DNA of 64,000 bases, taken from assembly GCA_030637515.1 (NCBI GenBank), contig DAOWGM010000059.1:25441-89440 (forward strand), given 5' to 3'. Source of the stretch: Bacteroidales bacterium (GTDB taxonomy: Bacteria; Bacteroidota; Bacteroidia; Bacteroidales; UBA12077). This document shows, piece by piece, positions 7,746-44,510 of this stretch (positions are counted from its first letter, which is position 1; the number at the start of each line of letters is the position of its first letter). Under the pieces are notes generated by a model. It was not told the DNA's origin and did not search any database. It saw nothing but the letters and a program-made list of their open reading frames with translations. A program made the position numbers and the translations under genes.

Positions 7746-7774
7746 ATAAAAAAGGGCTCTTTTTCAGAGCCCTT
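7746..7774 (-). terminator. Rho-independent terminator of the SprB-repeat gene
   Basis: 9-bp stem AAGGGCTCT/AGAGCCCTT with a 5-nt loop, followed on the minus strand by a U-run (plus-strand A-run 7748-7753). Confidence 0.7.
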
Positions 7775-7785
7775 AATTGCATTAT

Positions 7786-10700
7786 TTACTGTATAATAAT
7801 TTTTCTATTGATACTTACCTCTTTATTATAGAGTCGTATGAAATATATTCCTTTCGGATAATTAGCAACATTAACTTCCATCCTGCTTTTTTCACCAATT
7901 AAATTTAAGTCTCTTATAAAAACAACACTTCCTGATGCGTTTACAAGCTGTATAGTAAAGTCTCCCTCATATTCTGTTTTAACAAATAATCTATCTGAAA
8001 CAGGATTAGGATAAATACGAATTTTCTCATCAGAAAAATAATCAACAATACCATCTGGAGAATCTACTGATAAAGTACTTGAAGTAATAGGACCGCAAGT
8101 ATTATCATCAGTCACATCAACAGTATAATCTCCTGGCAATAACGAGTTAAAAACACCTGTAGAATTTGTAACACTACCTGGGTTAAGAGTGTAACTTAAA
8201 TCTCCTGTACCACCAGAAGCTGAAACTGTAACAGATCCATCTGCCACTGTTGAAGCTGAAGCATTTGTTGCACTTTCAGAATCAATTGTTATAACAGGAG
8301 GATTAGTAATATCAACACTATCTTCGTATTCACAATTATTTGCATCGCTCGCAATAAAGTAATACCTGCCTGCCGATAAGCCACTCTGATTTTTATCGGT
8401 TATCGCATGACCAGATCCGCCTGATGTTGTCCAGAAGTAATCAAAAGTAGGTGTTCCTCCTGAAACATTAAGTAATATAGCACCATCATTCTCATTATTA
8501 CAAGTAATATCATAAACATCTGGTACAATAACAATTAAGCCAGGTTGAGTAATATTATATGGTTTTGTTTGTTCACAACTATTTGCATCTGTTACGGTTA
8601 CAGTAAAAGAACCTGCAGGCATATCATCTGCAATTGCTGTAGCCTGTGATCCAGGATCATCCCACAAATATGAAAAGCCTCCGGCTCCGCCAGAAGCATT
8701 TGCTGTTACCTGGGCATCATTATTACCATAACATGTTACTCCATCATCGAGTACAATATCTATTAATATTGCTAGAGCATCAGTAATAGTTGCATTATCG
8801 GGTGTTTCACAAGAGTTTGCATCCGTAACTGTCACATTATAAGTATCGGCAATAAGACCAGCAATATCCTGAGTTTTATCTCCTGTTGACCAATTATATG
8901 TATACGGTTCAGTACCTCCGGTAACAGTTAAGTCAACATATCCCGAATTATCTCCATTACAATCTAATTGCGGAGGAACATCGGTTGATGTATTCAGAAC
9001 TAATGGTTCTATAATTGTTACAGAATCTGTTTTAGAACCACTATCGTCAGTTACAGTAACTAAATATTTCCCTGCACTCAGACCTGTTGCAGTTGGAGAA
9101 TTTAATCCTCCATCATGACTCCATACATATGATAATGTTCCTGAATATCCTAAGGATGTAATTGTAGCTTCTCCATCTCCTAAGCTATTGCATGATACAT
9201 TTTGAATATCTGATTCTTTAAAATAAATAAATAATTGAGTAGAATCAATAATAGTTAGCGAAGTATCCGCAGTACAGCCATTATCGTCCAAAACGGTAAC
9301 TGAATAAAGTCCTCCATCGGTTAAACCAGTAATATCCTCTGTACTTGCAGAGAATAAATTCGGCCCGGTCCAGGTATATGAAGCATATGATTCTGCACCT
9401 CCTGTAACCACAAGGTTAACTGCACCATCCTGTGCAACAGGGACATTATTTATGTGAGTTACTGTTGTTCCTGTGAATACAATTGTATCTGGCCCAGATA
9501 TATTAATTAATGTATCTGCCGTACATCCTTTTTCATCTGTTACAGTAACAGAATATGTACCAGTAGTCAGTCCGGTCTGATCTTCAGCAAGAAGACTAAC
9601 ACCTGAACCTCCGTTTGACTCAAACCAATAGTAAGTATTGCCACCATTACCTCCGCTAACATTAAGACCAATTGCTCCTTCAGTACTATAACTGCAAGAG
9701 GTAACTTGTGTTATGTTTGGGTTAAACAGAAATGTATCTGGTTCGGTAATATTAAATGTAACTGAATCTATGGAAGATGCATTGTCAGTTATGGTTACAG
9801 TATATTTACCAGCAGTAAGGCTTGATGCTGTTGAATCATTTAATCCTCCATCATGACTCCAGTCATAATTAATAGGAGGTACTCCAAAAAATGGTGTGAC
9901 AATGAGTTCTCCATCGTTCCCTTTACCACATGTTACATTTTGCTTTTTAGTAAAGGCAACTGTAAATGGCGGATCATATTTAGCAACTAATAAGCAAGAA
10001 TTACCTGGTATTGGATTAGTAAATAAACTATCGCCAACTTGAACTTCTGTTGCTCTAAAATAACCTGCTAAATATCCATTATTTTCAGAATCAGAATCTA
10101 TTTCAAGTCCGGAATCATTTTCAGAATCTGAGCCATCAATACTTATTGCCTTTAAATCATTTCCATCAGTATCAATGAGTCCTAAAAAGATATCGTAATC
10201 ATCAGTACCACTTGACTTCAGAGTATCTTCACCAAAGATTATTTCGTTAGAAAAGTATCCGGTACAATATAAAAATCCATTTTGATAATTAATTCCACGA
10301 GCCCAATCATGTGAGGTACTACCATAACCTTTTCCCCAAATTAAATTTCCGTTTTTATTATATTTATAAATAAAAATATCATCGCCTCCATTTGTAGTTA
10401 TTGCAGAAGAAAGCTCAGTTAAAGTTGAATCAATTTGTATGTTTGTTCCCTCGAAATAACCTGTAAAGTATATGTTGCCATAGTTATCTCTTGATAATGT
10501 ACCGGATAATGCTTCTGCATCTGTACTGGTTCTTCTGGTCCATAATCCGTTTCCAGAGATATCTGTCTTGTAAATAAATACATCGGTATAACCTGATCCT
10601 GTTGAAACTTCATCTCCAGTTTCAAAAGAACAAGTACCATCAAATACACCTAAAAAATAATAGTTTTCATTATAGGCTTTTAAATCTGTGAATTTTGAAC

Positions 10701-11343
10701 TTAAAGTAGTAGTTGGAATATCCTTTGCAAACAGCGTGTTTCCTTCATCGTCTAATTTTGTAATAAACATACCATAACTATTACTATACCTTATATCAGT
10801 GGGAAAGGTAATTGAATCACGATAAACTCCTGCAACTACCAAATCTCCGTATTTATCAATATCAATTGAAGAAACAAATTGCTTAGCTTCATTATATGCT
10901 ATCTTTTTAGCCCATATCTCATTTCCGTTTAAGTCATATTTTGCAAGAAATATATCTAAAAAACCATCTGAGTTTAATACTGTTGGGTCGAAAGTAATAT
11001 CCTGCTGAAAACCACCAACTAAATAAATATATGTTCCATCGGAAACCATACTGCTTCCAAAATCTAAACCTCCACCGCCTAATTGTTTAAACCAATCAAT
11101 TGTATAGTCTGATTTATATTTAACAATATAAGCATCTCTGGAATTAGCAATATAATCAGTTCCAACGTTAATTGTTCCTAAATAGTCGCCAAATACATAA
11201 ACATTGCCATCTATTACTTCCTGACTAAGAATTTGGTTTATGTCAGCTGTAGAACTAATATAGTTACTAAGAACAAAATCCTGACTATTTGCAGAATTAC
11301 ATACTAACACGCTTAATATCAGTAAATTTAAAAAATTTCTCAT
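7786..11343 (-). CDS. Large secreted protein: SBBP-like beta-propeller repeats + multiple SprB repeats + T9SS type-A C-terminal sorting domain
   Basis: Signal peptide 'MRNFLNLLILSVLVCNSANS|Q'. Repeated 'D.F..KY...GN..W' units in the N-terminal approx 460 aa. At least 6 'C.G..DG.......GG...Y.Y.W' SprB repeats. C-terminus 'IRIYPNPVSDRLFV...GIYFIRL'. Confidence 0.85.
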   Translation of the reverse strand: MRNFLNLLILSVLVCNSANSQDFVLSNYISSTADINQILSQEVIDGNVYVFGDYLGTINVGTDYIANSRDAYIVKYKSDYTIDWFKQLGGGGLDFGSSMVSDGTYIYLVGGFQQDITFDPTVLNSDGFLDIFLAKYDLNGNEIWAKKIAYNEAKQFVSSIDIDKYGDLVVAGVYRDSITFPTDIRYSNSYGMFITKLDDEGNTLFAKDIPTTTLSSKFTDLKAYNENYYFLGVFDGTCSFETGDEVSTGSGYTDVFIYKTDISGNGLWTRRTSTDAEALSGTLSRDNYGNIYFTGYFEGTNIQIDSTLTELSSAITTNGGDDIFIYKYNKNGNLIWGKGYGSTSHDWARGINYQNGFLYCTGYFSNEIIFGEDTLKSSGTDDYDIFLGLIDTDGNDLKAISIDGSDSENDSGLEIDSDSENNGYLAGYFRATEVQVGDSLFTNPIPGNSCLLVAKYDPPFTVAFTKKQNVTCGKGNDGELIVTPFFGVPPINYDWSHDGGLNDSTASSLTAGKYTVTITDNASSIDSVTFNITEPDTFLFNPNITQVTSCSYSTEGAIGLNVSGGNGGNTYYWFESNGGSGVSLLAEDQTGLTTGTYSVTVTDEKGCTADTLINISGPDTIVFTGTTVTHINNVPVAQDGAVNLVVTGGAESYASYTWTGPNLFSASTEDITGLTDGGLYSVTVLDDNGCTADTSLTIIDSTQLFIYFKESDIQNVSCNSLGDGEATITSLGYSGTLSYVWSHDGGLNSPTATGLSAGKYLVTVTDDSGSKTDSVTIIEPLVLNTSTDVPPQLDCNGDNSGYVDLTVTGGTEPYTYNWSTGDKTQDIAGLIADTYNVTVTDANSCETPDNATITDALAILIDIVLDDGVTCYGNNDAQVTANASGGAGGFSYLWDDPGSQATAIADDMPAGSFTVTVTDANSCEQTKPYNITQPGLIVIVPDVYDITCNNENDGAILLNVSGGTPTFDYFWTTSGGSGHAITDKNQSGLSAGRYYFIASDANNCEYEDSVDITNPPVITIDSESATNASASTVADGSVTVSASGGTGDLSYTLNPGSVTNSTGVFNSLLPGDYTVDVTDDNTCGPITSSTLSVDSPDGIVDYFSDEKIRIYPNPVSDRLFVKTEYEGDFTIQLVNASGSVVFIRDLNLIGEKSRMEVNVANYPKGIYFIRLYNKEVSINRKIIIQ

Positions 11344-11353
11344 GGCTTTAGTT

Positions 11354-11506
11354 TTATGAAACTTGGTATGAAGTAGCTTCTTTTGTTACATCATGGGTCT
11401 CTCCGCCTTCAGTCTTTCCCTTGTCCAGACAAATTAACTTTGGAGTCTCCCAATTTAGTTTTTCAGAACAACTATTAGTCTCTATTTTATTCCCCTTTTT
11501 ATCCAT
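11354..11506 (-). CDS. Candidate lasso-peptide precursor (50 aa, not in ORF track)
   Basis: Hand translation: MDKKGNKIETNSCSEKLNWETPKLICLDKGKTEGGETHDVTKEATSYQVS*. Same strand as and downstream of B2. 'WETPKL' resembles the YxxPxL RRE-binding leader motif, there is a Thr-x-Gly junction (T32-E33-G34), Asp/Glu acceptors follow, and the C-terminal Ser is as in kinase-associated lasso precursors. Confidence 0.6.
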   Translation of the reverse strand: MDKKGNKIETNSCSEKLNWETPKLICLDKGKTEGGETHDVTKEATSYQVS

Positions 11507-11646
11507 ATCAACACATTTGTTTTTGATCTCAATAATTATGCAATTTTACTAATATTCAAGTAAATTTATTACGGTTTTATTGATTCTACAAGTTTTTGTT
11601 ATAAAAAATAGTTTTCAATACATTCAATTATAATAATTTTTTTCTT

Positions 11647-12084
11647 TTAGCTGTAAAATCCAACAACAGAAAATTTTTCATATCCTTTCTTTCCACTTAT
11701 AAAATCACTGCCAATTTTAAGCCAGGCATGTGCAATCAGTTTACTATTTTTATCTTTTGACACACCAAGATAAATTGTCGATTTTATCTGGTGTTTTTCC
11801 AATACTTTTTTCACTGCAATTGCCTCTTCAAAACATTTTACTTTCCATGGCAATCTTTTTTTTAGTCTTCGTTTATTTTTTCTCAAGACATCTATTAATT
11901 GAAGCTGATTCTCATTAACATCGACTTCAATCTCTTTTTTAAATTCCCCAAGAACAGAACTAAACCATTTTAAAGGAATAATTCGAACAAGAACAAAAGC
12001 ATAAATCAACCAAAAAAATGTTTGGTTTAAAATTATACGTTCTTTTTTATCTATCTTATAATATTTCTTTAACAGTTTGAACAT
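11647..12084 (-). CDS. Lasso peptide biosynthesis B2 protein (transglutaminase-like leader peptidase)
   Basis: 145 aa. 'WKVKCFEEAIAVKKVL' (catalytic Cys), 'LIAHAWLKIGSDFISG' (His/Asp). The N-terminal hydrophobic helix is typical of the family. Confidence 0.85.
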   Translation of the reverse strand: MFKLLKKYYKIDKKERIILNQTFFWLIYAFVLVRIIPLKWFSSVLGEFKKEIEVDVNENQLQLIDVLRKNKRRLKKRLPWKVKCFEEAIAVKKVLEKHQIKSTIYLGVSKDKNSKLIAHAWLKIGSDFISGKKGYEKFSVVGFYS

Positions 12085-12117
12085 ATTTGATGTTCATATT
12101 TTTAAACGTTTTAAGAG

Positions 12118-12408
12118 CTAATATGTTACAACAATCAACTCTTTTTCAATTAAATCCATAATAAATGGAGCAATGTCTTTAAAACATTTGTTTTTATCAA
12201 TATTGTAATTTGCTGTAATCATTTCAATCAGAGTAACTATTTTAATAGGATTTTTAATATTATCCCAAATAAAAGTTCCGGTTTTACCTAAACCATAATA
12301 TTCTCCTTTTTCGATACTCATCATTACTTTTTCACCATCCAGATCGCTGGTAAGAACATCGTTTTTTCTTTGTATAATTGTATCTAATGTAATTTCTATT
12401 TTAGCCAT
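12118..12408 (-). CDS. PqqD-family lasso peptide B1 protein (RiPP recognition element)
   Basis: 'LDGEKVMMSIEKGEYYGLGKTGTFIWDNI....VTLIEMITANYNID' is a PqqD-like pattern. I prefer the ATG at 12408 (MAKIEITLD), 1 nt after the upstream TAG, over the track start at 12438. Confidence 0.8.
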   Translation of the reverse strand: MAKIEITLDTIIQRKNDVLTSDLDGEKVMMSIEKGEYYGLGKTGTFIWDNIKNPIKIVTLIEMITANYNIDKNKCFKDIAPFIMDLIEKELIVVTY

Positions 12409-12409
12409 A

Positions 12410-13276
12410 CTAATAAATAGGTTTATTGTTAGTATCAATATATTCGTATTTCATCATAACAGATTTATGTTTTGAAATAACTTCTTCAGTTGTTTTTTGA
12501 TTTAAACAATTTTTCCAATCACCCGTTTTCCCCTTTCTAAAAAATGACTTTGATTTAATCATCTTTTCTTTAAATCCGCCTTCTTTCTCCTGATTTGCAA
12601 GAACTGAAAAATCACTTTTTTTGATAGCTTCATGAATTTCTGAATCTGGCTTTTCAATTCCAATAAATTTTACTGCATCTTTAAAACTATCAAATGTGTT
12701 GCTTATCATATCTTCATAACGAATAAAATGAACTGGGATATTTTTTTGCTCTGTCCAGCTTTTTACATGATCTGACCAAGATCCTAAAATTTGCCGGAGT
12801 TGATTTTGAAGCTTGTCATTCTGATTACAAAAAGCAAAATTTGAATCATTCAATGTTTTAACCATTTTCTCAACTGGTTTGGCACTATGATAAGCAAAAG
12901 AAACCAAAACATCCAGTGGATTTCTGATAATATAAACCACTCCCCTTGTTATTTCTGATGGAAAAAGAGGTTCACCTCTTTCTGTTGCATAGTACTTATC
13001 GTGAACTTTCTTAAACAACAATTCATTGCTTTCAGCAGATTGCATTCGATACACTTCCGGTCGTAAAGAATCAATTTCATTAAAAGTTAAATCAGATGAC
13101 GAAAGACCAGTATATTCATCAAATATTTTTCTGGAACTGGAAATTGAAGTGTCAGCCAGATCGTTAATATTAGCAGGGACATCCGAATCGTTTAACAAAT
13201 TCGTAAGAAATACTCTAAACCAGGTATTCCCTGACTTTGGATAACTTGCAAGCCATATAATGTTTTTTTTATACAT
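12410..13276 (-). CDS. PAPS-dependent sulfotransferase (Sulfotransfer_1 type)
   Basis: 5'-PSB motif 'SYPKSGNTWFRVFL' and 3'-PB motif 'VVYIIRNPLDVLVSFAYH'. C-terminal 'FFRKGKTGDWKN' matches the family GxxGxW region. Confidence 0.85.
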   Translation of the reverse strand: MYKKNIIWLASYPKSGNTWFRVFLTNLLNDSDVPANINDLADTSISSSRKIFDEYTGLSSSDLTFNEIDSLRPEVYRMQSAESNELLFKKVHDKYYATERGEPLFPSEITRGVVYIIRNPLDVLVSFAYHSAKPVEKMVKTLNDSNFAFCNQNDKLQNQLRQILGSWSDHVKSWTEQKNIPVHFIRYEDMISNTFDSFKDAVKFIGIEKPDSEIHEAIKKSDFSVLANQEKEGGFKEKMIKSKSFFRKGKTGDWKNCLNQKTTEEVISKHKSVMMKYEYIDTNNKPIY

Positions 13277-14165
13277 CCAGATTTAGCTTTTTCAATAAAA
13301 AATCTCCAAATTCATTTAGCAATAATGGTGATTGAGGCCTGGTAACCTTATAAACCTTTATTTCAGGTAAAAGTTTATTTAAAACCTGAAAATGATCCTG
13401 TTGTTTATCGAGGCCTTGAACAAATCTGTAACGATATGTATTGTTTTTAACTGTATTAAATTTTTTAATTCCGGATAACTCTTCAAATTCAAATCCAGGT
13501 GAATTTTTAGTGTTTATAATGATAATATTTTTTAAAGGAAGAGGCTCATTATAATAGTTTTCATTAACGGGTAACTGAAATTTCATCATGTCAGGCCTTA
13601 TCTCTTCCAAAGATTCATCGTGCATTTTTAATTTTTGCAAAACATCGTTCCATAATTTCATTTTGGGAAATCCGGGAACAACTTCAAGATTATGATTTAC
13701 AACACTAATATCGTCAGCTAAAACCTGAAAAGCCTGACTAACAAAATAAGCTGCAATAGAAGACTTTCCTACTCCACTTAATCCTGTAAAGACGGTTGCC
13801 GATTTACCAAATTTTACGGCACTTCCATGAACCGGTAATAAACCTCGCTGAATAAATAATGCGCCAAAAGCCGAACCTAAAAGAAATAAACGAACTTCTT
13901 TATCAATTTCCTTTTTTAAAAGCTTTACACTTATTTGGTTTCCATTAGCGACATAGTACTTAGCTATATTATTAACTTCCAGTAAGAATTCATTTTTAGC
14001 TGCCTGATACATTACACCTTTATTAATTATTTTATCAAGCTTTGTGGGAGCTTCCCCAATCTTTATCTCCACATCAGGTGTACCCCCAGAAACCAATAAT
14101 TCTGGAATTTCAAAATCAGATTTAATAATTAATCCGAATGCCTTATATGTAAAGGTTTTTACCAT
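13269..14165 (-). CDS. HPr-kinase-like (HprK-related) lasso precursor kinase
   Basis: 298 aa. P-loop 'FTGLSGVGKSSIAAYF' in the C-terminal-domain position. The stop overlaps the sulfotransferase ATG (ATGTATAA). Confidence 0.75.
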   Translation of the reverse strand: MVKTFTYKAFGLIIKSDFEIPELLVSGGTPDVEIKIGEAPTKLDKIINKGVMYQAAKNEFLLEVNNIAKYYVANGNQISVKLLKKEIDKEVRLFLLGSAFGALFIQRGLLPVHGSAVKFGKSATVFTGLSGVGKSSIAAYFVSQAFQVLADDISVVNHNLEVVPGFPKMKLWNDVLQKLKMHDESLEEIRPDMMKFQLPVNENYYNEPLPLKNIIIINTKNSPGFEFEELSGIKKFNTVKNNTYRYRFVQGLDKQQDHFQVLNKLLPEIKVYKVTRPQSPLLLNEFGDFLLKKLNLDV

Positions 14166-14183
14166 TTCTTTTCTTGCTTAGCA

Positions 14184-14191
14184 CAAATTTA
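14184..14191 (-). promoter_or_regulatory. -7 box (TAAATTTG on minus strand) for the kinase-sulfotransferase-B1-B2 operon
   Basis: Plus strand CAAATTTA. 18 nt before the kinase ATG (14165). Confidence 0.5.
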
Positions 14192-14258
14192 CACGAAAAT
14201 GCCTTAAAAGTAAGTATTATTGGAGTTTTTGCCTGTAGAATTATCCTTTTCAATTGCT

Positions 14259-14266
14259 TATATTTG
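14259..14266 (+). promoter_or_regulatory. -7 box (TATATTTG) for the cyclase-nucleotidyltransferase operon
   Basis: Perfect TAnnTTTG, 15 nt before the ATG at 14282. It lies inside the track's longer ORF, which argues for the shorter start. Confidence 0.5.
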
Positions 14267-14281
14267 TTAAAAGTCTTTTTT

Positions 14282-16165
14282 ATGAACTCCATTTTCGGAA
14301 GAATAAATACTAGTAAAAATCAAATTGATCAATCTCTTTTTAACAATAGTATTGATGTATTATCAGTATTCCCTGATGTCAAAAAAGAAATCAGTATAGA
14401 TAATAATACAGCTTTAGGAGAGGTTCTTTTTCCTCCATTTATACAAGCAGGTATTCAACATTCATCGAAAAGAATTGTTTCTGATTCAAAGCTTTACAAC
14501 TTACCAGATCTTGTGCAAAAGTTAAATATAAATGAAAATCAAGCCGAAGAAGGTTTTGTTATTTTAAAAGCCTATGAAAAGTGGGGCAATGATTGTGTTA
14601 AATATTTTATTGGAGATTTTGCTTTTGCAATTTGGGACACGAATACGGAAGAACTCTTTTGTGCACGTGATCATTTGGGAGTAAAGCCTTTTCATTATTT
14701 TTTTAATGATGAAACATTTGTTTTTAGTTCTGATATCAGTGCTGTTCTCGCGCAAAAGGATCTTCAGTTTAGTATTGATGAACAATACATTGCAGATACT
14801 ATCTCAATTATAAGTTCGAAAAAAATCAGAACAAATTATAATGAGATTAAGAAGTTGCCTCCTGCCTCTTACTTATTTTTAAAAAATGAGAACTTAGAAA
14901 TTAAACAATACTGGGAATTACAAACTCAAAAAACCATTCAGAAAAAAGACTCGGAAATTATTGAAGATTTTAAAACTTTACTTTTAAAAGCGGTAAAGTG
15001 CAGATTAAATAATGATAATTCAACCGGGACAGAGCTTAGTGGAGGTATTGACTCTTCGTGCATTACTGCAATATCTTCCAAGTTTGCTCAAATAAAAACT
15101 TTTTCTCATGTTTTACCTGATCATTTATTGGAAAAAATACATCCTTTTAAAGATGAGCGTGATTATATAAATCTTCTCGATGATTATTGTAACATTCAGG
15201 ATCGATATTTTATAACTTCAGAAAACAAATCTTTACATCGTGCAATTGAAGAAAATGTAATTGATTATAAAGGAATTTCTCAACAGAACTTTGGAGTTTT
15301 TTCTGATTGTTTGTATCAACAAGCAATGAAAGGAAATGTTTCTGTATTGCTTTCAGGATTTGGTGGAGATGAAGTAGTTACTTCAAAATCTAAAGGGTAT
15401 CTTTCTGAGTTAGCTTCAAATAGACAGTGGAAAGAACTAAAAAAAGATTTGAAGAATCAAAAGCCCAATAAATACAGATATTTAAGAACTCTATTAAAGT
15501 ATTTACTAAAGTTTAAAGCTCCGTTTATTTACAAGTTTATTTCTTTAAGAAAATATAAAAGACCGTTTTGGATAGATAAATATGATAATTTGGCAATAAG
15601 CAAAGAGTTCTCCCAAGAATTTAATATTAAAGAACGATACTTATTGTATTACAAAAAACGAAACTGTTCATCTCTGCAAAAAAATGCTATTGAAAGAATT
15701 ACACATCCGCATGTTTCGCAACGACTTGAATACTGTTCGTTAATTGCACGAAAGTACGGAATCGAATATCGATATCCTTTGCTTGACATACGTTTAATTG
15801 AGTGTTATCTGGCAATGCCTACGAGATTAAAAGCACAAAACGGAATCGGAAGATATGCAATCAGAAAAGCAATTGAGGGAATTGTGCCTGAAAAAATCCA
15901 ATGGAGAAATGATAAAAGCGGAGCTACCATTCCAAGCATTTTTATGAGAATGATAAATGATAAAGAACAAATATCAGAACTTATAAATCGGGCAAAGAAA
16001 ATTGATATTATTAAAAAATACATCGATCTTGAAAAATTTGAAAGATGGTTTCATAAACTCTGTCAAAGATCTGAAAACAAACAAAAAAATATTAATCCGG
16101 CTGCTTTTTATAATTACTTAAAGCTAATTATATTTATAGAACAAAATCCTAATCTTTTTAAATGA
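14282..16165 (+). CDS. Lasso peptide isopeptide-bond-forming cyclase (asparagine synthetase B homologue)
   Basis: PP-loop 'TELSGGIDSSCITA'. AsnB-like N-domain 'GDFAFAIWDTNTEELFCARDHLGVKPFHYF'. The N-terminus MNSIFG lacks the Cys2 glutaminase nucleophile. Confidence 0.85.
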   Translation: MNSIFGRINTSKNQIDQSLFNNSIDVLSVFPDVKKEISIDNNTALGEVLFPPFIQAGIQHSSKRIVSDSKLYNLPDLVQKLNINENQAEEGFVILKAYEKWGNDCVKYFIGDFAFAIWDTNTEELFCARDHLGVKPFHYFFNDETFVFSSDISAVLAQKDLQFSIDEQYIADTISIISSKKIRTNYNEIKKLPPASYLFLKNENLEIKQYWELQTQKTIQKKDSEIIEDFKTLLLKAVKCRLNNDNSTGTELSGGIDSSCITAISSKFAQIKTFSHVLPDHLLEKIHPFKDERDYINLLDDYCNIQDRYFITSENKSLHRAIEENVIDYKGISQQNFGVFSDCLYQQAMKGNVSVLLSGFGGDEVVTSKSKGYLSELASNRQWKELKKDLKNQKPNKYRYLRTLLKYLLKFKAPFIYKFISLRKYKRPFWIDKYDNLAISKEFSQEFNIKERYLLYYKKRNCSSLQKNAIERITHPHVSQRLEYCSLIARKYGIEYRYPLLDIRLIECYLAMPTRLKAQNGIGRYAIRKAIEGIVPEKIQWRNDKSGATIPSIFMRMINDKEQISELINRAKKIDIIKKYIDLEKFERWFHKLCQRSENKQKNINPAAFYNYLKLIIFIEQNPNLFK

Positions 16166-17328
16166 TTGATTTTAAAAATCATATTGAACAAAAATTCACT
16201 GATGAGTTAAAACTTCTGATTTTTCTTTCTCAGGGTGATTTGAATGATATCTCTTTCTTAGGAAATTTAGACAAGATTGATTGGGATGAATTTGTAGAAT
16301 TGACAATAAAACATAGGTTAGTATCGCATGTGTTACAGCATTCGGAATTTTTAGCTGAGAAATTTCCAATCCCCACTTACGAAAAATTAATTGACACCAG
16401 ATTAAAACACTCCAAAACATCACTTAATTATGCAATTCACGCTATTCGGATATTTCAAGAATTTAAAGAAAAAAGTATTCCTCATATATTTTTTAAAGGG
16501 CCATTACTTTCTCTTGAATTATATAATGATATTGGATACAGAAATTTTGGTGATATTGATGTATTGGTTGAAAAGAAAGATGCTGAGAAAGCAAAAAATC
16601 TACTTGAAGACTTAGGCTTTACTTGTATTTATCCTAAAATTAAACTTACTGAAAAACAAAAAGAAGTAAATTACAGTATTAGCCATCATTATCAGTTTAA
16701 ACATCCTGTACAAACTATTCATATTGAGCTACACTGGAATATTACAAATCCGAAAACTTTTTTTGGAATAGAATCAAAAGATATTATTTCAAACTCCATT
16801 AATTTAAAAGTGTCGAACTATGAATTGCCTTATATTTCAAAAATTGAAAATATCGTTTTTCAGGCTGCACACGGATCTATTCATCAATGGTATAGATTGT
16901 TCTGGATAAAAGATTTTTCGAAACTGCTCACAATAGTTCATTCTGAAGATCTGAAAAAAGCGTATGATTTATCAAAGAAACTTAAGCTGCAAAACTGTTT
17001 TATTCAAGCATGCTTATTATCAAATTTGCTTTACAAAACTGAAGTTCCAGATTTTGAGAATTTTAAGATTAAGAAGAATCTGAATAAGATTCCATTAAGC
17101 TCAATCACTGGAAAAGATTTAAGCAAGCAAGGATTAAAAGGAAAAATTAAATTCGTTTTATACAGAATCCGTTTAAAACCCGATTTCAATTATTATTTCG
17201 AATTAATTTACAGGCTAAGAACTCATTTGTCGGATTGGGAATTAATAAAGCTTCCAAAAAATCTATTCTTTTTATATTATGCTTTAAGACCTTTCTTACT
17301 GATTTATAAATTTCTATTTAGAAAATGA
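16162..17328 (+). CDS. NTP_transf_5 (PF14907-like) nucleotidyltransferase-fold tailoring enzyme
   Basis: 'GYRNFGDIDVLVEKKD' nucleotidyltransferase signature and 'IHIELHWNI'. ATGA overlap with the cyclase stop. Confidence 0.7.
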   Translation: MIDFKNHIEQKFTDELKLLIFLSQGDLNDISFLGNLDKIDWDEFVELTIKHRLVSHVLQHSEFLAEKFPIPTYEKLIDTRLKHSKTSLNYAIHAIRIFQEFKEKSIPHIFFKGPLLSLELYNDIGYRNFGDIDVLVEKKDAEKAKNLLEDLGFTCIYPKIKLTEKQKEVNYSISHHYQFKHPVQTIHIELHWNITNPKTFFGIESKDIISNSINLKVSNYELPYISKIENIVFQAAHGSIHQWYRLFWIKDFSKLLTIVHSEDLKKAYDLSKKLKLQNCFIQACLLSNLLYKTEVPDFENFKIKKNLNKIPLSSITGKDLSKQGLKGKIKFVLYRIRLKPDFNYYFELIYRLRTHLSDWELIKLPKNLFFLYYALRPFLLIYKFLFRK

Positions 17329-17943
17329 AGTATCTGAAAAATCAATTGAGCTAAATTGAAATCCTTTCGCCGAATAAAATTTTAGTACTTCAGGCAAAAC
17401 ATATTTGAGATTTTTTTCTGCTTTTATAGTATCATGAAAAACAATAATAGATCCTGGGTTTACTGAATTTATTGTTTTTTTCAGGCATGTTTCTTTCTTT
17501 AAGCTATTGTTATAATCTCTTGTAAGAACATCCCACATTACTATTTTAAACTCTTTTTTTAGTTGTCTTATTTGTGATGGTTTTATTCTACCATATGGAG
17601 GTCGAAAAAGATTAGAATTAATATACTCTGAAGCTTTTCTAACATTCTGAAAATACTTTTCATTACTCGTACGCCATCCCTTAATATGAGAATAGCCATG
17701 ATTGCCTACAGAATGCCCTTCGGCAATTATTTGCTTGTAAAGTTTTTGATTATTTTCAACGTTCTTCCCTATACAAAAGAAAGTGGCTTTGGCATTATAT
17801 TCTTTTAAAACAGAAATAACCCATTCGGTTACTCCCAATGTTGGACCATCGTCAAATGTTAAAAAAAGCTCCTTATTCCGATCAGGGAAACTCCAGATTA
17901 AATCTTTAAAAAATCTTGCAACTATATTTTCTTTCTTTATCAC
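17314..17943 (-). CDS. Polysaccharide deacetylase (NodB/CE4 family)
   Basis: 'LFLTFDDGP', 'GHSVGNHGYSH', 'FRPPYG' CE4 motifs. Confidence 0.85.
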   Translation of the reverse strand: MIKKENIVARFFKDLIWSFPDRNKELFLTFDDGPTLGVTEWVISVLKEYNAKATFFCIGKNVENNQKLYKQIIAEGHSVGNHGYSHIKGWRTSNEKYFQNVRKASEYINSNLFRPPYGRIKPSQIRQLKKEFKIVMWDVLTRDYNNSLKKETCLKKTINSVNPGSIIVFHDTIKAEKNLKYVLPEVLKFYSAKGFQFSSIDFSDTSFSK

Positions 17944-17946
17944 CTT

Positions 17947-20900
17947 TTAATTAAACTGCTCAATATATTGCATAAACTTTTGCTCAATCTGACTATTTAA
18001 CTCCTGCTGATTATTACTTGCAGTAATTCTGTAAAGCTCCTGCAAAATATAAAGATCCATTTGTTTTTCCATCGTAATATCCTTCGTTCCAGATGCAAGC
18101 TGAGGTTTAAGATTAAAATAATAATCAAGCTCAACAAACATTTTGCTGCTAAGTCTTTCTACCAAAGAGTTTGCCTTTTCTGTTGCACCTGCATGATAAT
18201 ACGCTGATATAACAGAAAGTAAAGTACTATTGAATGGTATCTTATGATCAGGAAATAATTCCATACAACGATCAAGGACTAATAAAGCAGAATCGTTCTT
18301 TCCTTCTTCAATTAATTTCTCAGCTAATCTTCCAAAACTACTTCGTAGGTTTGAAAACATCCTGGTATTATTTTCATCAAAATAGATGTCGTTTTCTTCA
18401 ATTCCACCCCAACGAAATTTATTCATAATATTATCGTACATCAACTCAGAATCAACTTCACCGCTATGAAATCGCTCCTTCTTTGCTTCAACCGGAACCA
18501 ACTGATATGTTAATCCATCAACTTTAAAATATTTTTGCAGATTAAAATACTTCGTACTGGTTACAGTCATTGCCCAATAAACAGGTCTCTCCCAATTGTT
18601 TGTTGCTAAAATATCGAGCAACATTAATCCGTCTTTATATAAGTATCCTTGATTAAAATTCCATTGCATCTCGTCAACAATTCGATCTCTGTATTTTTCA
18701 TCTACAATACCTTTTTCAATAACATTATCAGGATCAATCTTTAATTTATATTTCTTAGATGGAATATAATTTATCATTTCGTTTGCTACAAAAGGAGATT
18801 TAATCTTTGTTTTAGCATCATCGCTCGCAATAAAATCAACCACATCTCTTACATTAACTGCTTGCCCAACCCTGTCGTAGATCGGTAAAATATCACGAAC
18901 TCCTTTATGATATTTATCGTGAGTTAAAGAGAATGGCATTCGTTCAGCTTCATATGATTTACGACTCATTTGATCAATATACCATGCAGCTCTTAAATAA
19001 CTTAAATTACAAACTTTTATATCTGTTCTAATTCCTTCAACTTCCTGAGCATACCAAAGTGGGAATGTATCATTATCACCATTTGTAAATAAAATCGCAT
19101 TCTTTTTACACGAATTAAGATAATTATATGCAAGATCACGAGCTGTATATCTTCCTGATCTGTCATGATCGTCCCAGTTTTCAGAAGCCATAATTCCAGG
19201 AACTAAAACCAAAGTAATTACTGTCACCAATATTGCAGAAATTGACTTTGGAGCTTTTTTGCTTAAATAGCTAATAAGTCCTGCTACTCCTAATCCAATC
19301 CAAATTGAGAAAGCATAATAAGAACCTGCAAAAGCATAATCCCTTTCACGAGGCTGTATAGGATACTGATTTAAATAAACAACTATTGCTATACCTGTTA
19401 ATACATATAACATTAATACAACCGCGAAGTCTTGTTTGTTTTGTTTATAATGAAACATTAATCCGACAAGTCCGAGTAAAAGCGGCAACATAAAATATTT
19501 GTTTCTGCCAGGATTATTTTTAAGATGCTCCGGAACCTGATCCTGATCACCCAATCTTGCATTATCTACAAATGGAATTCCACTTATCCAATTTCCTTTC
19601 AACACATTACCATGACCTTGAATATCATTTTGTCGTCCTGAGAAATTCCACATAAAATACCTGAAATACATATGACCAATCTGGTATTTTACAAAAAATG
19701 CAATATTATTTGCAAAAGAAGGATTAACTCTTTTTTCAACTTTGCCGGCTCCATTTCTTACAGAAATCTTCTTGTCCGATATATTAACCCATTTATTATA
19801 TTCATTAATGTGTTTCTTATCGCTGCTATACATTCTCGGGAAAAGTGATGTAAAACGCGGATCAAATTCTACTTCAATTTTATAATCAGCAATCTCATAT
19901 CTTCCATCTTTTTTAATATAAACAGGTTTTGTTTTTTTATTACTTATAGCGGGAGCATCAAAAGACTGACCGTAAAATAATGGTCTGTCGCCATATTGTT
20001 CGCGATTCAAATAATATAATAAATCAAATACATTGTCCGGATTGTTTTGATCCATAGGAGGATCAGCAGCAGAACGAATAATAACCATTGCAAATGAAGA
20101 ATAACCAATTAGAATTACGGTTAATCCCATAATTACAGTGTTTAAAACAACTTTCCCTTTGCGATGTGTATATTTTATTCCCCATACAATTAATCCAATA
20201 ACAAGGAAAACATAAAATAATGCTCCTGAATTATATGGCAAACCAAATCCGTTTACAAACAATAAATCAAACCACGATGCAACTTTCAGAAATCCTGGAA
20301 TAATAACATACATAATAGATGCAAGAAGTATTACAGAAATTACTAAAGCATAGAAAATACCTTTTTTCGTTACTTCGTATCTTTTAAAATAATAAACAAA
20401 AGCAATAGCAGGAATTGCTAATAAGTTCAATAAGTGAACTCCAATAGATAATCCAAGTAAATATGCTATAAAAATTAACCATCGGTTCGCATATTTGTTA
20501 TCAGATTCGTTTTCCCATTTTAAAATTGCCCAAAATACAACAGCGGTAAATAACGAAGAGGTTGCATAAACCTCAGCCTCAACAGCTGAAAACCAAAAAG
20601 AATCAGAAAATGTGTATGCTAAAGCACCAACAATTCCACTTCCTATAATTGTAATTATATTTCCAATTGAAAAATTATCTTCTTTAATAAAAATCTTTTT
20701 TGCAAAGTGCGTAATTGTCCAGAACAAAAACAAGATTGTAAAAGCACTCGACATTGCAGAAAGAATATTAACCATTTTTGCTGCATTTTCAGGTCCTGAA
20801 GAAAACAATGTAAAGATTCTTCCTAAAATCATAAAAAATGGTGCTCCCGGTGGATGTCCAACTTCAAGTCTGTATGCCGATGCAATAAATTCACCACAGT

Positions 20901-21003
20901 CCCAAAAGCTTGCAGTTGGCTCAATAGTTAACATATAAACTATTGCTGCAATTAAAAAAACTATCCATCCAATGAGGTTATTATAAAATCGGTATTGTTT
21001 CAT
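17947..21003 (-). CDS. DUF2723 family membrane protein (GT-C-like, putative glycosyltransferase)
   Basis: 1018 aa. N-terminus 'TASFWDCGEFIASAYRLEVGHPPGAPFF', many TM segments, TPR-like soluble C-terminus. Confidence 0.8.
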   Translation of the reverse strand: MKQYRFYNNLIGWIVFLIAAIVYMLTIEPTASFWDCGEFIASAYRLEVGHPPGAPFFMILGRIFTLFSSGPENAAKMVNILSAMSSAFTILFLFWTITHFAKKIFIKEDNFSIGNIITIIGSGIVGALAYTFSDSFWFSAVEAEVYATSSLFTAVVFWAILKWENESDNKYANRWLIFIAYLLGLSIGVHLLNLLAIPAIAFVYYFKRYEVTKKGIFYALVISVILLASIMYVIIPGFLKVASWFDLLFVNGFGLPYNSGALFYVFLVIGLIVWGIKYTHRKGKVVLNTVIMGLTVILIGYSSFAMVIIRSAADPPMDQNNPDNVFDLLYYLNREQYGDRPLFYGQSFDAPAISNKKTKPVYIKKDGRYEIADYKIEVEFDPRFTSLFPRMYSSDKKHINEYNKWVNISDKKISVRNGAGKVEKRVNPSFANNIAFFVKYQIGHMYFRYFMWNFSGRQNDIQGHGNVLKGNWISGIPFVDNARLGDQDQVPEHLKNNPGRNKYFMLPLLLGLVGLMFHYKQNKQDFAVVLMLYVLTGIAIVVYLNQYPIQPRERDYAFAGSYYAFSIWIGLGVAGLISYLSKKAPKSISAILVTVITLVLVPGIMASENWDDHDRSGRYTARDLAYNYLNSCKKNAILFTNGDNDTFPLWYAQEVEGIRTDIKVCNLSYLRAAWYIDQMSRKSYEAERMPFSLTHDKYHKGVRDILPIYDRVGQAVNVRDVVDFIASDDAKTKIKSPFVANEMINYIPSKKYKLKIDPDNVIEKGIVDEKYRDRIVDEMQWNFNQGYLYKDGLMLLDILATNNWERPVYWAMTVTSTKYFNLQKYFKVDGLTYQLVPVEAKKERFHSGEVDSELMYDNIMNKFRWGGIEENDIYFDENNTRMFSNLRSSFGRLAEKLIEEGKNDSALLVLDRCMELFPDHKIPFNSTLLSVISAYYHAGATEKANSLVERLSSKMFVELDYYFNLKPQLASGTKDITMEKQMDLYILQELYRITASNNQQELNSQIEQKFMQYIEQFN

Positions 21004-36746: not shown

Positions 36747-36754
36747 TATTTTTG
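36747..36754 (+). promoter_or_regulatory. -7 box (TATTTTTG) for the glycan locus operon
   Basis: TAnnTTTG, 18 nt before the ATG at 36773. It overlaps the track's TTG start at 36752, which argues against that start. Confidence 0.45.
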
Positions 36755-36772
36755 GGGTTTAAACAAAGGAAT

Positions 36773-37969
36773 ATGCAAAATATCGGAATAGTTGTTGATA
36801 ATGAATTCAACACAGATATTAGAGTTGTGAATGAATGTAGATCATTGTTAGAAAATGGATTTAATATTTTTGTGCTTTGTTTTAATTATGGCCAGCATAA
36901 AAATCTTGAAATGGTCCATGGGTGCCAGGTAATTAGAATACCTGTTAAACGAAAGATTCGGAACATTCTGTTTGCATTTAACAATACTGTGGAGCTTTAC
37001 AATATTTTCTGGAAAATTCACATAAAGAAATTTATTAAAAAATTTCCTGTTGACGCTCTACATGTCCATGATTTATATTTATCAAAACCAGCTTTTTATG
37101 CTACAAAAAATTCTACCATATCTTTTAATCTTGATTTACACGAGAATTACCCTGCTGCTATAAAAGGCTACAAGTGGATGTTTAAGTTTCCATCGAAATA
37201 TTTTGTAAATGCAAGAAAGTGGCAAAAGCTTGAACGAAAATATTTAAATTATCCTGAAAAAATTATTGTTCTTAGTGAAACTTTCAGAGATGATCTTATT
37301 AATAAATATTCCTTCCTGAATCAAAATAAATTCATAGTATATCCTAATGTTGCGGATTTAAAAGAATTAACGGGCTTTAAAATTGACAACTCTATTCTTC
37401 CAAAAAAGAATGATTTTATTTTATTTTATTTTGGTGTTATATCGGAAAGAAGAGGAATTTATACTGTTATTAATTCTTTAAAAGAATTAAAATCTACTTT
37501 ACCAAATCTCAAACTTCTATTAATTGGTCCTGTATATAAATCTGAGCGAGCAGTTTTTAACCAAACTATTAATGATCAGGAAATAAAAGATATGATAATT
37601 TATTATCCATGGAAAGATATAAGCTTACTTCCATCGTATATAAATATAAGTGATATTTGTCTGTCTCCGATTATAAAAAATGATCAGCACGAATCGGGAG
37701 TCGCAAATAAAATTTTCCAATACATGCTTTTTGAAAGGCCGCTTATTGTTTCAAACTGCAAACCACAGCAAAAAATTATTTTAGAAGAGAATTGCGGGCT
37801 GGTATTTGAAAGTGATAACTCAAACGATCTGTCTGATAAAATTAAAGAACTTTATAATGATGAGAAATTGAGAAAAGAAATGGGAGTAAATGGGAAAAAA
37901 GCAATAGAAAATAAGTATAACACACAAATCGCAGGAGAGAATTTAGTTAATTTGTATAGAAATTTATAG
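36773..37969 (+). CDS. Glycosyltransferase family 4
   Basis: GT-B fold. 'HESGVANKIFQYMLFERPLIVSN' is an EX7E-type motif. Confidence 0.8.
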   Translation: MQNIGIVVDNEFNTDIRVVNECRSLLENGFNIFVLCFNYGQHKNLEMVHGCQVIRIPVKRKIRNILFAFNNTVELYNIFWKIHIKKFIKKFPVDALHVHDLYLSKPAFYATKNSTISFNLDLHENYPAAIKGYKWMFKFPSKYFVNARKWQKLERKYLNYPEKIIVLSETFRDDLINKYSFLNQNKFIVYPNVADLKELTGFKIDNSILPKKNDFILFYFGVISERRGIYTVINSLKELKSTLPNLKLLLIGPVYKSERAVFNQTINDQEIKDMIIYYPWKDISLLPSYINISDICLSPIIKNDQHESGVANKIFQYMLFERPLIVSNCKPQQKIILEENCGLVFESDNSNDLSDKIKELYNDEKLRKEMGVNGKKAIENKYNTQIAGENLVNLYRNL

Positions 37970-37972
37970 TAA

Positions 37973-40038: not shown

Positions 40039-40046
40039 TTTCACAA

Positions 40047-40895: not shown

Positions 40896-40902
40896 ATCCG
40901 GT

Positions 40903-44455: not shown

Positions 44456-44502
44456 AGATATAAAAAGAGCTTAAATTATTGATAATTTCATATCAACTTA
44501 AT

Positions 44503-44510
44503 TATCTTTG
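44503..44510 (+). promoter_or_regulatory. -7 box (TATCTTTG) upstream of the PIG-L gene
   Basis: TAnnTTTG, 20 nt before the ATG at 44531. Confidence 0.4.

Follow-up and report, generated by a model that had tools for sequence, protein, structure and literature searches.

The closest described systems are the clusters for paeninodin (Paenibacillus dendritiformis C454) and for the ThcoK/SyanK polyphosphorylated lasso peptides, which combine split B1 and B2 genes, an Asn-synthetase-like cyclase and an HprK-like kinase with a precursor bearing a WxxPxL leader and a terminal Ser; the WxxP leader is a hallmark of the paeninodin type (PMC13381572). Homologous kinases of lasso peptides and of linear polyphosphorylated peptides (LPP) phosphorylate Ser (PMC8498205, PMC13381572). 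The pseudomycoidin cluster of Bacillus pseudomycoides DSM 12442 pairs the kinase PsmK with the PF14907 enzyme PsmN, and its product carries a phosphorylated C-terminal Ser with one or two hexoses (PMC8498205). Phosphorylation of the C-terminal Ser by the kinase and addition of hexose to that phosphoserine by the PF14907 enzyme had both been stated in an earlier sequence-only reading of the locus described here, and both are backed by the same review (PMC8498205). In the LPP clusters (LppK, LppB, LppS, LppN) a ribosomal peptide is likewise acted on by an HprK-like kinase together with a discrete RiPP recognition element (RRE) and a PF14907 enzyme, but they lack the cyclase and B2 protease present here, relying on a signal-peptidase-like protease, and their leaders are YxxP where that of the present locus is WxxP. 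LppN was inactive in a heterologous host, and the activity of this enzyme type has been established in vitro in no system (PMC13381572).

Sulfotransferase genes have been noted in lasso clusters together with HPr-kinase genes in 2014 (Letzel et al., PMC4289311) and together with nucleotidyltransferase genes in 2016 (Zhu et al., as cited in PMC8498205). Those clusters hold HPr-type kinase, sulfotransferase and nucleotidyltransferase families alongside lasso machinery, as here; they come from Firmicutes and anaerobes and begin with the sulfotransferase gene, and in both cases the product is uncharacterised, whereas the present host belongs to the Bacteroidales. The gene combination is neither unusual nor unnoticed, because of these reports and because the kinase-sulfotransferase module is widespread across phyla. 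Literature searches found no characterised sulfated lasso peptide, in line with the sequence-only reading, and its statement that no lasso peptide isolated from an AT-rich Bacteroidota host is known to it is consistent with the literature, in which solved lasso structures span only three phyla, Bacteroidota not among them.

Gene content and layout of the Bacteroidales cluster

Positions 11354-17328 of the window (the whole 64,000-nt stretch of DNA analysed), from an uncultured, AT-rich Bacteroidales bacterium, hold paeninodin-like split-B lasso-peptide genes in two divergent, translationally coupled operons: kinase K, sulfotransferase S, RRE B1, protease B2 and a 50-aa precursor A on the minus strand, and cyclase C and PF14907 nucleotidyltransferase N on the plus strand. 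All seven ORFs were found with the coordinates, motifs and junctions that had been described for them. The identification as a split-B lasso cluster, also proposed earlier, is upheld by profile HMMs, structural evidence for K, the PDB match of B1, and synteny with a conserved small precursor ORF in related genomes, where the genes are not scattered.

The discrete PqqD-type RRE B1 (12118..12408, minus strand, 96 aa; PF05402 E 1.1e-13), whose ATG at 12408 follows the TAG of S after 1 nt, scored 95.5 bits against the NCBIfam profile NF033536 lasso_PqqD_Bac (cutoff 80). Its top PDB match, and so the closest solved RRE, was the paeninodin-like PbaB1 (9x90_B, E 8.8e-19), against E 0.12 only for the LPP RRE (LppB). 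B2 (11647..12084, minus strand; PF13471 E 4e-15) is a transglutaminase-like Cys/His leader peptidase, with the Cys in VKCFEEAIAV and the His in IAHAWLKIG, and scored 66.5 bits against NF033537 lasso_biosyn_B2 (cutoff 33). The 627-aa macrolactam synthetase C (14282..16165, plus strand; PF00733 E 2.9e-38) is Asn-synthetase-like, with the PP-loop SGGIDS within ELSGGIDSS and an N-terminus, MNSIFG, that lacks the Cys2 glutaminase nucleophile; its top NCBIfam match was the lasso cyclase NF033535 (371.5 bits, under that model's cutoff of 525), ahead of asparagine synthase TIGR01536 (229.8 bits). N (16162..17328, plus strand; motif GDIDVLV), of the PsmN/LppN type, matched PF14907 with E 2.7e-46 and 158.6 bits (cutoff 31.2). 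Its first 4 nt (16162-16165) are shared with the end of C, which fits the ATGA junction reported for it, and it lies in the cyclase operon, whereas the pseudomycoidin N gene lies between B2 and an exporter. B2 and N form a fusion in L030 (Anaerolineae) and L038 (Candidatus Leptofilum), both Chloroflexota-type loci, and N is therefore tied to the lasso machinery.

The 116-bp divergent intergenic region (14166..14281) contains two Bacteroidetes-type -7 boxes (TAnnTTTG), one facing K (14184-14191, minus strand) and one facing C (14259-14266, plus strand); the sole other match in 11354-17328, at 11435 on the plus strand, lies antisense within the coding region of A. The gene that starts 10 nt past the stop codon of A (7786..11343, minus strand) encodes a secreted protein of 1185 aa with a signal peptide, an N-terminal SBBP-type beta-propeller, SprB repeats (E 1.7e-39) and a type IX secretion system (T9SS) C-terminal sorting domain (Por_Secre_tail, E 5e-16), and is probably co-transcribed with the K-S-B1-B2-A operon. 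A gene for a T9SS-secreted SBBP/SprB surface protein follows the precursor gene, at 10-30 nt, in 15 Bacteroidales loci. An intrinsic-terminator-like hairpin (7752..7774, minus strand; AAGGGCTCT-GAAAA-AGAGCCCTT, then a T-run), located 12 nt past the end of the gene for the 1185-aa protein, is the only strong minus-strand intergenic site of this kind from K to 7752 and probably marks the end of the minus-strand transcription unit. The promoter boxes and this single terminator are predicted to delimit the operons.

No ABC exporter or immunity gene is present in the cluster or adjoining it, and this lack of a dedicated exporter distinguishes it from the paeninodin type, as do the Bacteroidales host and the sulfotransferase translationally coupled to the kinase. 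Neighbouring genes encode a polysaccharide deacetylase and a TMEM260-like glycosyltransferase. The Bacteroidales cluster looks chromosomal and vertically inherited. The cluster and the genome around it have the same GC content, and the orthologues of its proteins in locus L002 are 55-71% identical. No ORF is interrupted, and the PAPS-binding loops, Walker A, PP-loop and Cys/His motifs are all in place. The arrangement is far beyond chance; dozens of independent genomes share this gene set in synteny.

The kinase and sulfotransferase pair

K (13269..14165, minus strand) is a P-loop kinase with the Walker A motif GLSGVGKS, quoted earlier as GLSGVGKSS. Profile searches placed B1, B2, C, S and N in the families predicted by the sequence-only reading; K was the only weak case, its PF07475 match (E 5e-5, 23.3 bits) falling under the gathering score of 33.3 and TIGR00679 giving E 2.4e-4. 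The AlphaFold model of K (pLDDT 92.5) matched PEP carboxykinase (E 8e-9, TM 0.6) and HPr kinase/phosphatase (E 1.5e-6) in Foldseek, which points to a PEPCK/HprK fold. As described before, the stop of K overlaps the start of S, in ATGTATAA, the overlap being 8 nt.

S (12410..13276, minus strand; PF00685 E 7.7e-30) is a PAPS-type sulfotransferase (Sulfotransfer_1) with the motifs YPKSGNTWF and IIRNPLDVLVS. Its PDB matches were cytosolic SULTs and the glycopeptide sulfotransferases Teg12, Teg14 and StaL (E 1e-12 to 1e-7), with which its PKSGxTW and RKGxxGDW motifs align; RaxST was not among them. The family alignment shows K14, H92, R118, S126 and R247-K248-G249 to be invariant, the PAPS-binding motifs are intact, and the invariant Lys-x-His is a candidate catalytic pair. 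A second sulfotransferase is encoded in a polysaccharide locus of the window, implying that PAPS is also used elsewhere in it.

The loci collected around S are the best-scoring of at least 580, and more distant family members may have other contexts. Within this set K lies beside S in all 80 testable loci, from many phyla (80 of 83; in the other three a contig end cuts K off), and in 66 loci it is directly upstream on the same strand, with gaps of -14 to +27 nt and two exceptions at 138 and 144 nt. Forty-five of these best-scoring loci are complete, S being flanked by 7 kb or more in each direction, and contain K (45), B1 (40), C (39), B2 (33) and N (25), with N and C occurring together in about half. 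The characterised clusters for paeninodin, pseudomycoidin and LPP have K but no S, and therefore S depends on K and not the reverse. Of all the cluster's proteins S is conserved best (55% identity in locus L003, against 23-39% for the others). The architecture is not rare, and in this set the pair is near-obligatory and widespread across phyla. The 2014 and 2016 reports differ from the present data in this near-obligatory pairing in many phyla (among the best-scoring of at least 580 loci) and in the Bacteroidales version joined in an operon with a T9SS cargo gene.

Precursor peptide and possible sulfate acceptors

Precursor A (11354..11506, minus strand; 50 codons, 50 aa, MDKKGNKIETNSCSEKLNWETPKLICLDKGKTEGGETHDVTKEATSYQVS) is annotated as a gene in the source assembly and has homologues downstream of B2 in related loci. 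Its leader contains W19-x-x-P22-x-L24 and T32, followed by a predicted core that runs from G35 to the C-terminal Ser50 and in which E43 would be the ring acceptor. W19, P22, T32 and G35 are invariant in the aligned precursors of the 15 Bacteroidales loci, with Asp or Glu 7-8 residues past G35 and a C-terminal Ser in 13 of the 15, and three further precursors conform to this pattern. The core, of 16-17 aa, is shorter than in the paeninodin type. Where it begins relative to the invariant Thr is ambiguous: cleavage before the invariant G35 is favoured, with cleavage before G34 as the alternative. A start at G35 puts Thr at -3, departing from the usual Thr(-2) rule at lasso cleavage sites, to which paeninodin conforms; the G34 register follows the spacing of PbaA (W at -15) but then needs a 10-residue ring, for which we know of no precedent in lasso peptides.

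The kinase-sulfotransferase clusters share no conserved hydroxyl residue other than the C-terminal Ser, the expected K site. Tentatively, and with slightly less than even confidence, S together with K would sulfate the C-terminal tail on the hydroxyl of a Ser or a Thr; otherwise the acceptor may be a sugar or a phosphate, or S may not act on the peptide at all. S may instead build on the decoration of the C-terminal Ser, sulfating either the hexose added by N, which would give a sulfo-glycosyl-phosphoserine, or the phosphate, which would give a phosphosulfate mixed anhydride. This proposal is possible, if rather doubtful. It would fit the constant company of S and K in the testable loci examined (among the best-scoring of at least 580), usually with translational coupling, the occurrence of K elsewhere without S, the C-terminal Ser as sole near-universal hydroxyl, and the core of locus L086, which lacks aromatic residues even though the S of that locus and the S of the window share 72% identity. 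Sugar hydroxyls are normal Sulfotransfer_1 acceptors, as in heparan-sulfate sulfotransferases, but with N within 7 kb in only 25 of the 45 complete loci a sugar cannot serve as acceptor in every locus unless some genomes encode N at another site. Against a phosphate acceptor, we know of no sulfotransferase that uses a phosphate monoester. That N builds on a phosphate in pseudomycoidin provides a precedent for extending this decoration (PMC8498205). Sulfation of the tail tyrosine Y47 is improbable, although the nearest solved relatives of S are phenol/tyrosine-ester SULTs and glycopeptide phenol sulfotransferases, and PAPS-dependent sulfation of peptide natural products by Teg12, Teg14, StaL and, on RaxX (RaxX sulfatyrotide), RaxST resembles the role proposed for S. 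These enzymes act on phenolic hydroxyls, whereas no Tyr is conserved in the kinase-sulfotransferase precursors, and Tyr therefore cannot be the general sulfation site. Most Bacteroidales cores do have Tyr or Phe 3-4 residues past the ring-closing acid, but the residue is Phe in L022 and missing in L086, many precursors of other phyla lack Tyr (for example L023, L026, L027 and L054), and this position makes more sense as a steric plug in a short-loop lasso than as a site of modification.

The tight coupling of K and S, and the NCBI name 'adenylyl-sulfate kinase' of the orthologue P0136, would also suit a K that supplies PAPS to S in the manner of an APS kinase in place of acting on the peptide. 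This is extremely unlikely: the top 50 Foldseek matches of K were PEP carboxykinase and HPr kinase/phosphatase throughout, with no adenylyl-sulfate kinase among them, the homologous lasso and LPP kinases phosphorylate Ser, and the C-terminal Ser that those kinases need is kept in most precursors. A cryptic or decaying cluster, or one whose S and N belong to an unrelated pathway (modification of surface polysaccharide or protein, for example), would agree with the missing exporter, the deacetylase and glycosyltransferase neighbours and the other sulfotransferase chemistry in the genome. It is very unlikely, given the intact ORFs with their expected motifs, the linkage of the seven genes through block inversions and in phyla without those neighbours, the high conservation of S and the B2-N fusions.

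Proposed pathway and product

We infer the catalytic steps of the cluster from homology. As in characterised homologues, B1 would bind the W19-x-x-P-x-L leader and K would phosphorylate Ser50, once or several times, on the still-linear precursor. B2 would then cut shortly past T32, the favoured cut before G35 releasing the core GETHDVTKEATSYQVS, and C would link Gly1 to Glu43, forming a 9-residue ring round the short tail ATSYQVS with Y47 as the likely plug. N may put a hexose or another NDP-derived group on the phosphate, as PsmN does in pseudomycoidin, and S would act as a PAPS-dependent O-sulfotransferase in partnership with K, the two probably forming a K-S complex that is recruited to the precursor once B1 has bound it; this third enzyme is absent from the pseudomycoidin cluster.

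The locus is, with good confidence, a functional, chromosomally fixed, paeninodin-like split-B lasso cluster operating by a pathway of this kind. From the three tailoring enzymes we infer a product that would carry phospho, glycosyl and sulfo groups together. If the pathway holds, it would yield a small lasso peptide of strongly anionic character, and the cluster represents a solid genome-mining lead.

Gene content of the split-B lasso cluster

The cluster at 11354-17328 comprises seven genes in two divergent operons, and all seven open reading frames claimed in the sequence-only reading, with every peptide motif quoted for them, were recovered in an ORF listing of 8-21 kb of the window. The minus strand carries the putative HprK-like kinase K (13269-14165), the sulfotransferase S (12410-13276), the RRE protein B1 (12118-12408, from its ATG), the leader peptidase B2 (11647-12084) and the 50-codon precursor gene A (11354-11506), and the plus strand carries the asparagine-synthetase-like cyclase C (14282-16165) and the PF14907 nucleotidyltransferase N (16162-17328). 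The translational coupling described for these genes is also present: the stop of K and the start of S overlap within ATGTATAA, the TAG stop of S lies 1 nt from the ATG of B1, and C shares its last 4 nt (16162-16165) with the start of N. The 116-bp intergenic region between K and C contains one Bacteroidetes-type -7 box (TAnnTTTG) towards each operon. All seven ORFs, including the 50-aa A, are called as genes in the Bacteroidales metagenome-assembled genome GCA_023136955.1.

Profile searches against Pfam and NCBIfam placed B1, B2, C, S and N in their predicted families. The cyclase matches PF00733 (E 2.9e-38), and its top NCBIfam match is the lasso cyclase model NF033535, at 371.5 bits under a strict cutoff of 525 and well above the score of the asparagine synthase model; it has the PP-loop SGGIDS and an N-terminus, MNSIFG, without the glutaminase Cys. 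B1 matches the 'lasso PqqD chaperone, Bacillus type' model NF033536 (95.5 bits, cutoff 80) and PF05402 (E 1.1e-13), and its closest solved relative is PbaB1, the RRE of a paeninodin-like lasso pathway (PDB 9x90, E 8.8e-19), compared with an E of only 0.12 for the RRE of linear LPP peptides. B2 matches NF033537 (66.5 bits, cutoff 33) and PF13471 (E 4e-15) and retains both the catalytic-type Cys (VKCFEE) and His (AHAW). The genes by which a split-B lasso cluster is recognised, namely a cyclase, a discrete PqqD-like B1, a transglutaminase-like B2 and a short precursor, are therefore all found here, and the identification is further supported by the predicted fold of K, the structural relative of B1, synteny and the conservation of the precursor.

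N, which matches PF14907 (158.6 bits, cutoff 31.2, E 3e-46), is a feature that the cluster has in common with pseudomycoidin-type clusters. B2 and N are fused in one ORF in two Chloroflexota-type loci, L030 (Anaerolineae, 10005-11948) and L038 (Candidatus Leptofilum, 10139-11881), and similar fusions have been mentioned for Firmicutes (PMC8498205).

Precursor family, cleavage site and ring

Candidate precursors occur downstream of B2 or beside C in most of the homologous loci anchored on S (the best of at least 580). Across 15 aligned Bacteroidales precursors, W19, P22, T32 and G35 never vary, an acidic residue (Asp or Glu) follows 7 or 8 residues after G35, and an aromatic residue usually stands 3-4 positions past this acid. 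The window precursor has W19-E-T-P22-K-L24 in its leader, followed by T32, G34/G35 and E43, and ends in YQVS. It displays the hallmarks of lasso precursors, with a [Y/W]xxPx[L/I/V] leader motif, a Thr near the cleavage site, a small first core residue and an acid (Asp or Glu at core position 7-9). The leader Trp of paeninodin-type precursors (PMC13381572) is represented by W19, and the phosphosite of that type by the C-terminal Ser, which is found in 13/15 of the aligned Bacteroidales precursors, in all three added relatives and in most candidates from K-S loci of other phyla. A PDB search with the precursor sequence gave chance-level matches only.

Some precursors depart from this pattern. 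Those of two Bacteroidales loci that encode both K and S, L012 (10991-11101) and L018 (10760-10870), end in TSGNN and TSETN; either the kinase would accept an internal Ser or the C-terminus would be trimmed. Tandem precursors are also found in other hosts, with four in the Anaerolineales locus L042 (12753-13567), Cys being present in the cores of three of them, and another three in the Saprospiraceae locus L067 (10099-10699).

The core of the nearest relative, whose S is 82% identical, differs from that of the window only at H38Y and D39N, and since D39 is replaced there, the comparison rules out D39 as ring acceptor and leaves E43 as the predicted one. For the cleavage site, the alignment favours G35 as residue 1, giving a predicted core GETHDVTKEATSYQVS with a Gly1-Glu9 ring: the first residue would then be invariant and each orthologue would form a ring of 7-9 members, a size already known, with a Thr at -3 as the point against this assignment. 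Cleavage one residue earlier, with G34 as residue 1 and GGETHDVTKEATSYQVS as the core, would keep the W(-15) spacing reported for PbaA and preserve Thr(-2), reportedly the spacing in paeninodin. However, it is disfavoured relative to cleavage before G35, as it would produce a 10-membered ring in the window and three other sequences, a ring size that is unknown, and would make the first core residue Asp in two sequences and Thr in one. The calculated neutral monoisotopic mass of the predicted lasso peptide is 1732.790 Da for GETHDVTKEATSYQVS and 1789.812 Da for GGETHDVTKEATSYQVS; for the former, the decorated forms would have masses of 1812.757 (HPO3), 1812.747 (SO3), 1892.714 (phosphate and sulfate), 1974.810 (phosphate and hexose) and 2054.766 Da (phosphate, hexose and sulfate).

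The kinase-sulfotransferase pair and its predicted chemistry

Sequence matches of K to the HPr kinases are confined to the P-loop region of that family and fall below threshold (PF07475 23.3 bits against 33.3; TIGR00679 E 2.4e-4). A structure predicted after alignment of 30 K homologues (mean pLDDT 92.5) matched PEP carboxykinases (E 8e-9, TM about 0.6) and HPr kinase/phosphatases (E 1.5e-6) in a Foldseek search of the PDB, with no adenylyl-sulfate kinase among the top 50 matches. The tight coupling of K to S, together with one NCBI protein name, had raised the possibility of an APS kinase, which was rejected on the confident PEPCK/HprK fold of the model. The name in question, 'adenylyl-sulfate kinase', is attached to a K orthologue that is 76% identical (P0136), and the predicted fold indicates that it is a misannotation.

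S matches PF00685 (E 8e-30). The proteins to which it aligns include cytosolic sulfotransferases and three glycopeptide sulfotransferases, Teg12, Teg14 and StaL, and its PAPS-binding loops are intact. The motifs YPKSGNTW, IIRNPLDVLVS and FFRKGKTGDWKN align to solved SULTs, and the Sulfotransfer_1 hallmarks are present, including the PKSGxTW loop that binds the 5'-phosphosulfate, the RNPxD...S and RKGxxGDW 3'-phosphate elements and a catalytic-type Lys-x-His. Residues K14, K90, H92, R118, S126, R247, K248 and G249 are invariant across 11 family members. No other protein of the cluster is as conserved as S, which is 55% identical to its counterpart in the Bacteroidales locus L003; the corresponding values for B2, B1, K, C and N are 23-39%. 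Greater conservation than that of the core machinery across the clade is unusual for a tailoring enzyme.

The distribution of the pair was surveyed by tblastn with the window proteins and by iterated HMM searches. S has thousands of protein homologues, and a scan of species-representative genomes gave at least 580 loci, the best 80 of which were fetched. Among these best of at least 580, K was found in 80 of 83 S-anchored loci, the other three ending at a contig edge, and in 66 it immediately precedes S in the same orientation, at a gap of -14 to +27 nt except for two gaps of 138 and 144 nt. Forty-five loci from the same best-scoring set extend at least 7 kb in both directions from S, and these encode K (45), B1 (40), C (39), B2 (33) and N (25), with K, N and C all accompanying S in 23. 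The hosts of the K-S pair include Bacteroidales, other Bacteroidota, Chloroflexota, Desulfobacterota, Acidobacteriota, Cyanobacteria, Negativicutes and Proteobacteria, among others. Cultured carriers of the pair include Sporomusa silvacetica DSM 10669 (L035), Mucilaginibacter sp. E4BP6 (L076), Petrachloros mirabilis ULC683 (L037) and Octadecabacter dasysiphoniae G9-8 (L039). Because these genes co-occur across many phyla, the three-enzyme combination is a recurrent architecture, the tight K-S pair being its most constant feature. Its novelty had therefore been overstated in the sequence-only reading; HPr-kinase and sulfotransferase genes were noted in lasso clusters in 2014 (PMC4289311), and in 2016 lasso clusters of Firmicutes were described as containing genes for sulfotransferases and nucleotidyltransferases, according to the review PMC8498205, which also describes work on these enzymes as still in the pipeline. 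The clusters for paeninodin, pseudomycoidin and LPP contain K without S (PMC8498205, PMC13381572). The gene pattern constrains the relationship, such that S depends on K and not K on S, and the coupling provides a hypothesis for the order of action, with K first and then S.

By analogy with characterised homologues (PMC8498205, PMC13381572), B1 would bind the leader, B2 would cleave it and C would form the macrolactam, and K would phosphorylate the linear precursor at its C-terminal Ser, perhaps repeatedly. In pseudomycoidin, the PF14907 enzyme adds hexose to the phosphate (PMC8498205). Of the hydroxyl residues in the candidate K-S precursors examined, only the C-terminal Ser is nearly universal. 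For the remaining enzyme, our best guess is recruitment of S through K and sulfation of a Ser/Thr hydroxyl in the tail. S may alternatively act on the sugar or phosphate of the C-terminal cap, a tentative proposal that we consider unlikely, and for the sugar the absence of N from about 45% of the complete K-S loci (n=45, from the best of at least 580) counts against it. That S is a tyrosine sulfotransferase is less probable still, to the point of being very doubtful, and a conserved Tyr as the general sulfation site was rejected, given that the core of the Bacteroidales locus L086 has no aromatic residue at all and many precursors from other phyla are free of Tyr.

Genomic setting and significance in the Bacteroidales

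The syntenic clusters expected in related genomes were found: in the Bacteroidales the whole lasso block and its flanks are syntenic, with the small precursor ORF conserved. One flank consists of a polysaccharide deacetylase and a 1018-aa TMEM260/DUF2723-like membrane protein (17314-21003, minus strand), a pair kept beside the lasso block in L002, L003, L008, L012-L019 and L033; the 3' end of the deacetylase gene overlaps that of N by 15 nt in convergent orientation. The other flank is a gene for an SBBP/SprB-repeat protein with a T9SS sorting domain (7786-11343, minus strand), which follows A at a gap of 10-30 nt in 15 Bacteroidales loci; those sharing this pair with the window are L002-L004, L006, L008, L012, L014, L015, L018, L019, L033 and L084-L086. 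The lasso block and the SprB gene are inverted as a unit relative to the deacetylase/TMEM260 flank in L008, L019 and L033, so that the pair stays joined through the inversion. In the window the gap is 10 nt and lacks a terminator, the only strong intergenic minus-strand terminator (7752-7774) lying after the SprB gene, and the two genes are probably co-transcribed. Such an operon link between a lasso precursor and a T9SS surface protein was not met in the lasso literature searched for other questions. A protein search found the N-terminal domain to be a generic SBBP beta-propeller common in T9SS cargo, and a reverse association with lasso clusters at the level of this domain therefore cannot be specific.

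Two departures from the common layout were observed. In L048, L050 and L073, which have a different layout, a SprB-repeat gene lies beside the cluster and not directly after A. In L085 (4284-6140), a Bacteroidales locus from a close relative, K and S no longer overlap and are about 210 nt apart. S is separated from B1 there by a 65-aa DUF559 fragment, suggesting that DUF559 entered by local insertion or that the operon was rearranged internally.

The surrounding genes are housekeeping genes (purD, rpsB, tsf, queA, truB and uppP) and GC is about 30% throughout, without a compositional break at the cluster; this setting argues for vertical inheritance of a chromosomal cluster and not for a recently acquired island. 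A polysaccharide biosynthesis locus at 36752-47572, with GT4 glycosyltransferases, an FkbM methyltransferase, a Wzx-type flippase and a PIG-L deacetylase, also includes a second sulfotransferase (Sulfotransfer_3, 37973-38854) and a D-glucuronyl C5-epimerase-like gene (38854-40038). These genes suggest a sulfated, possibly glycosaminoglycan-like, surface polymer and, to judge from the second sulfotransferase, the genome uses PAPS-type chemistry elsewhere. A crude regular-expression scan for ABC ATPase motifs, indicative only, gave no match near the window cluster and matches in 16 of 75 loci elsewhere.

A broader reading, which we regard as a long shot, would make K-S a dedicated module building, at the C-terminal Ser, a modification unknown in any ribosomal peptide, and would make the Bacteroidales product a conserved, chromosomally fixed partner of the co-transcribed SBBP/SprB surface protein and not a strain-variable antibiotic. 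The modification could then be a sulfated phosphoglycosyl cap or a phosphosulfate mixed anhydride, yielding a highly anionic peptide, and the product would have a role at the cell surface or in gliding or adhesion.

Bacteroidetes have been flagged as an underexplored source (PMC7533575) and a putative lasso cluster is known from Amoebophilus; Pseudomonadota, Actinomycetota and Bacillota account for all solved lasso structures, with none from Bacteroidota. Literature searches on sulfated lasso peptides found none, in agreement with the initial statement that no characterised product is known to include the sulfotransferase step. The lasso class and two of the three tailoring steps are understood, and the sulfotransferase step had been noticed earlier. 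Lasso peptides attract interest both as antibiotics and for the high stability of their scaffolds, and each new tailoring reaction widens the range of products. The nearly obligatory pairing of S with the lasso kinase in many phyla points to a conserved and unstudied chemistry, for which the Bacteroidales clade offers many natural core variants. The fixed chromosomal site among housekeeping genes, the lack of a detected exporter and the probable co-transcription with a T9SS protein hint that some lasso peptides may serve the physiology of their producer rather than warfare.
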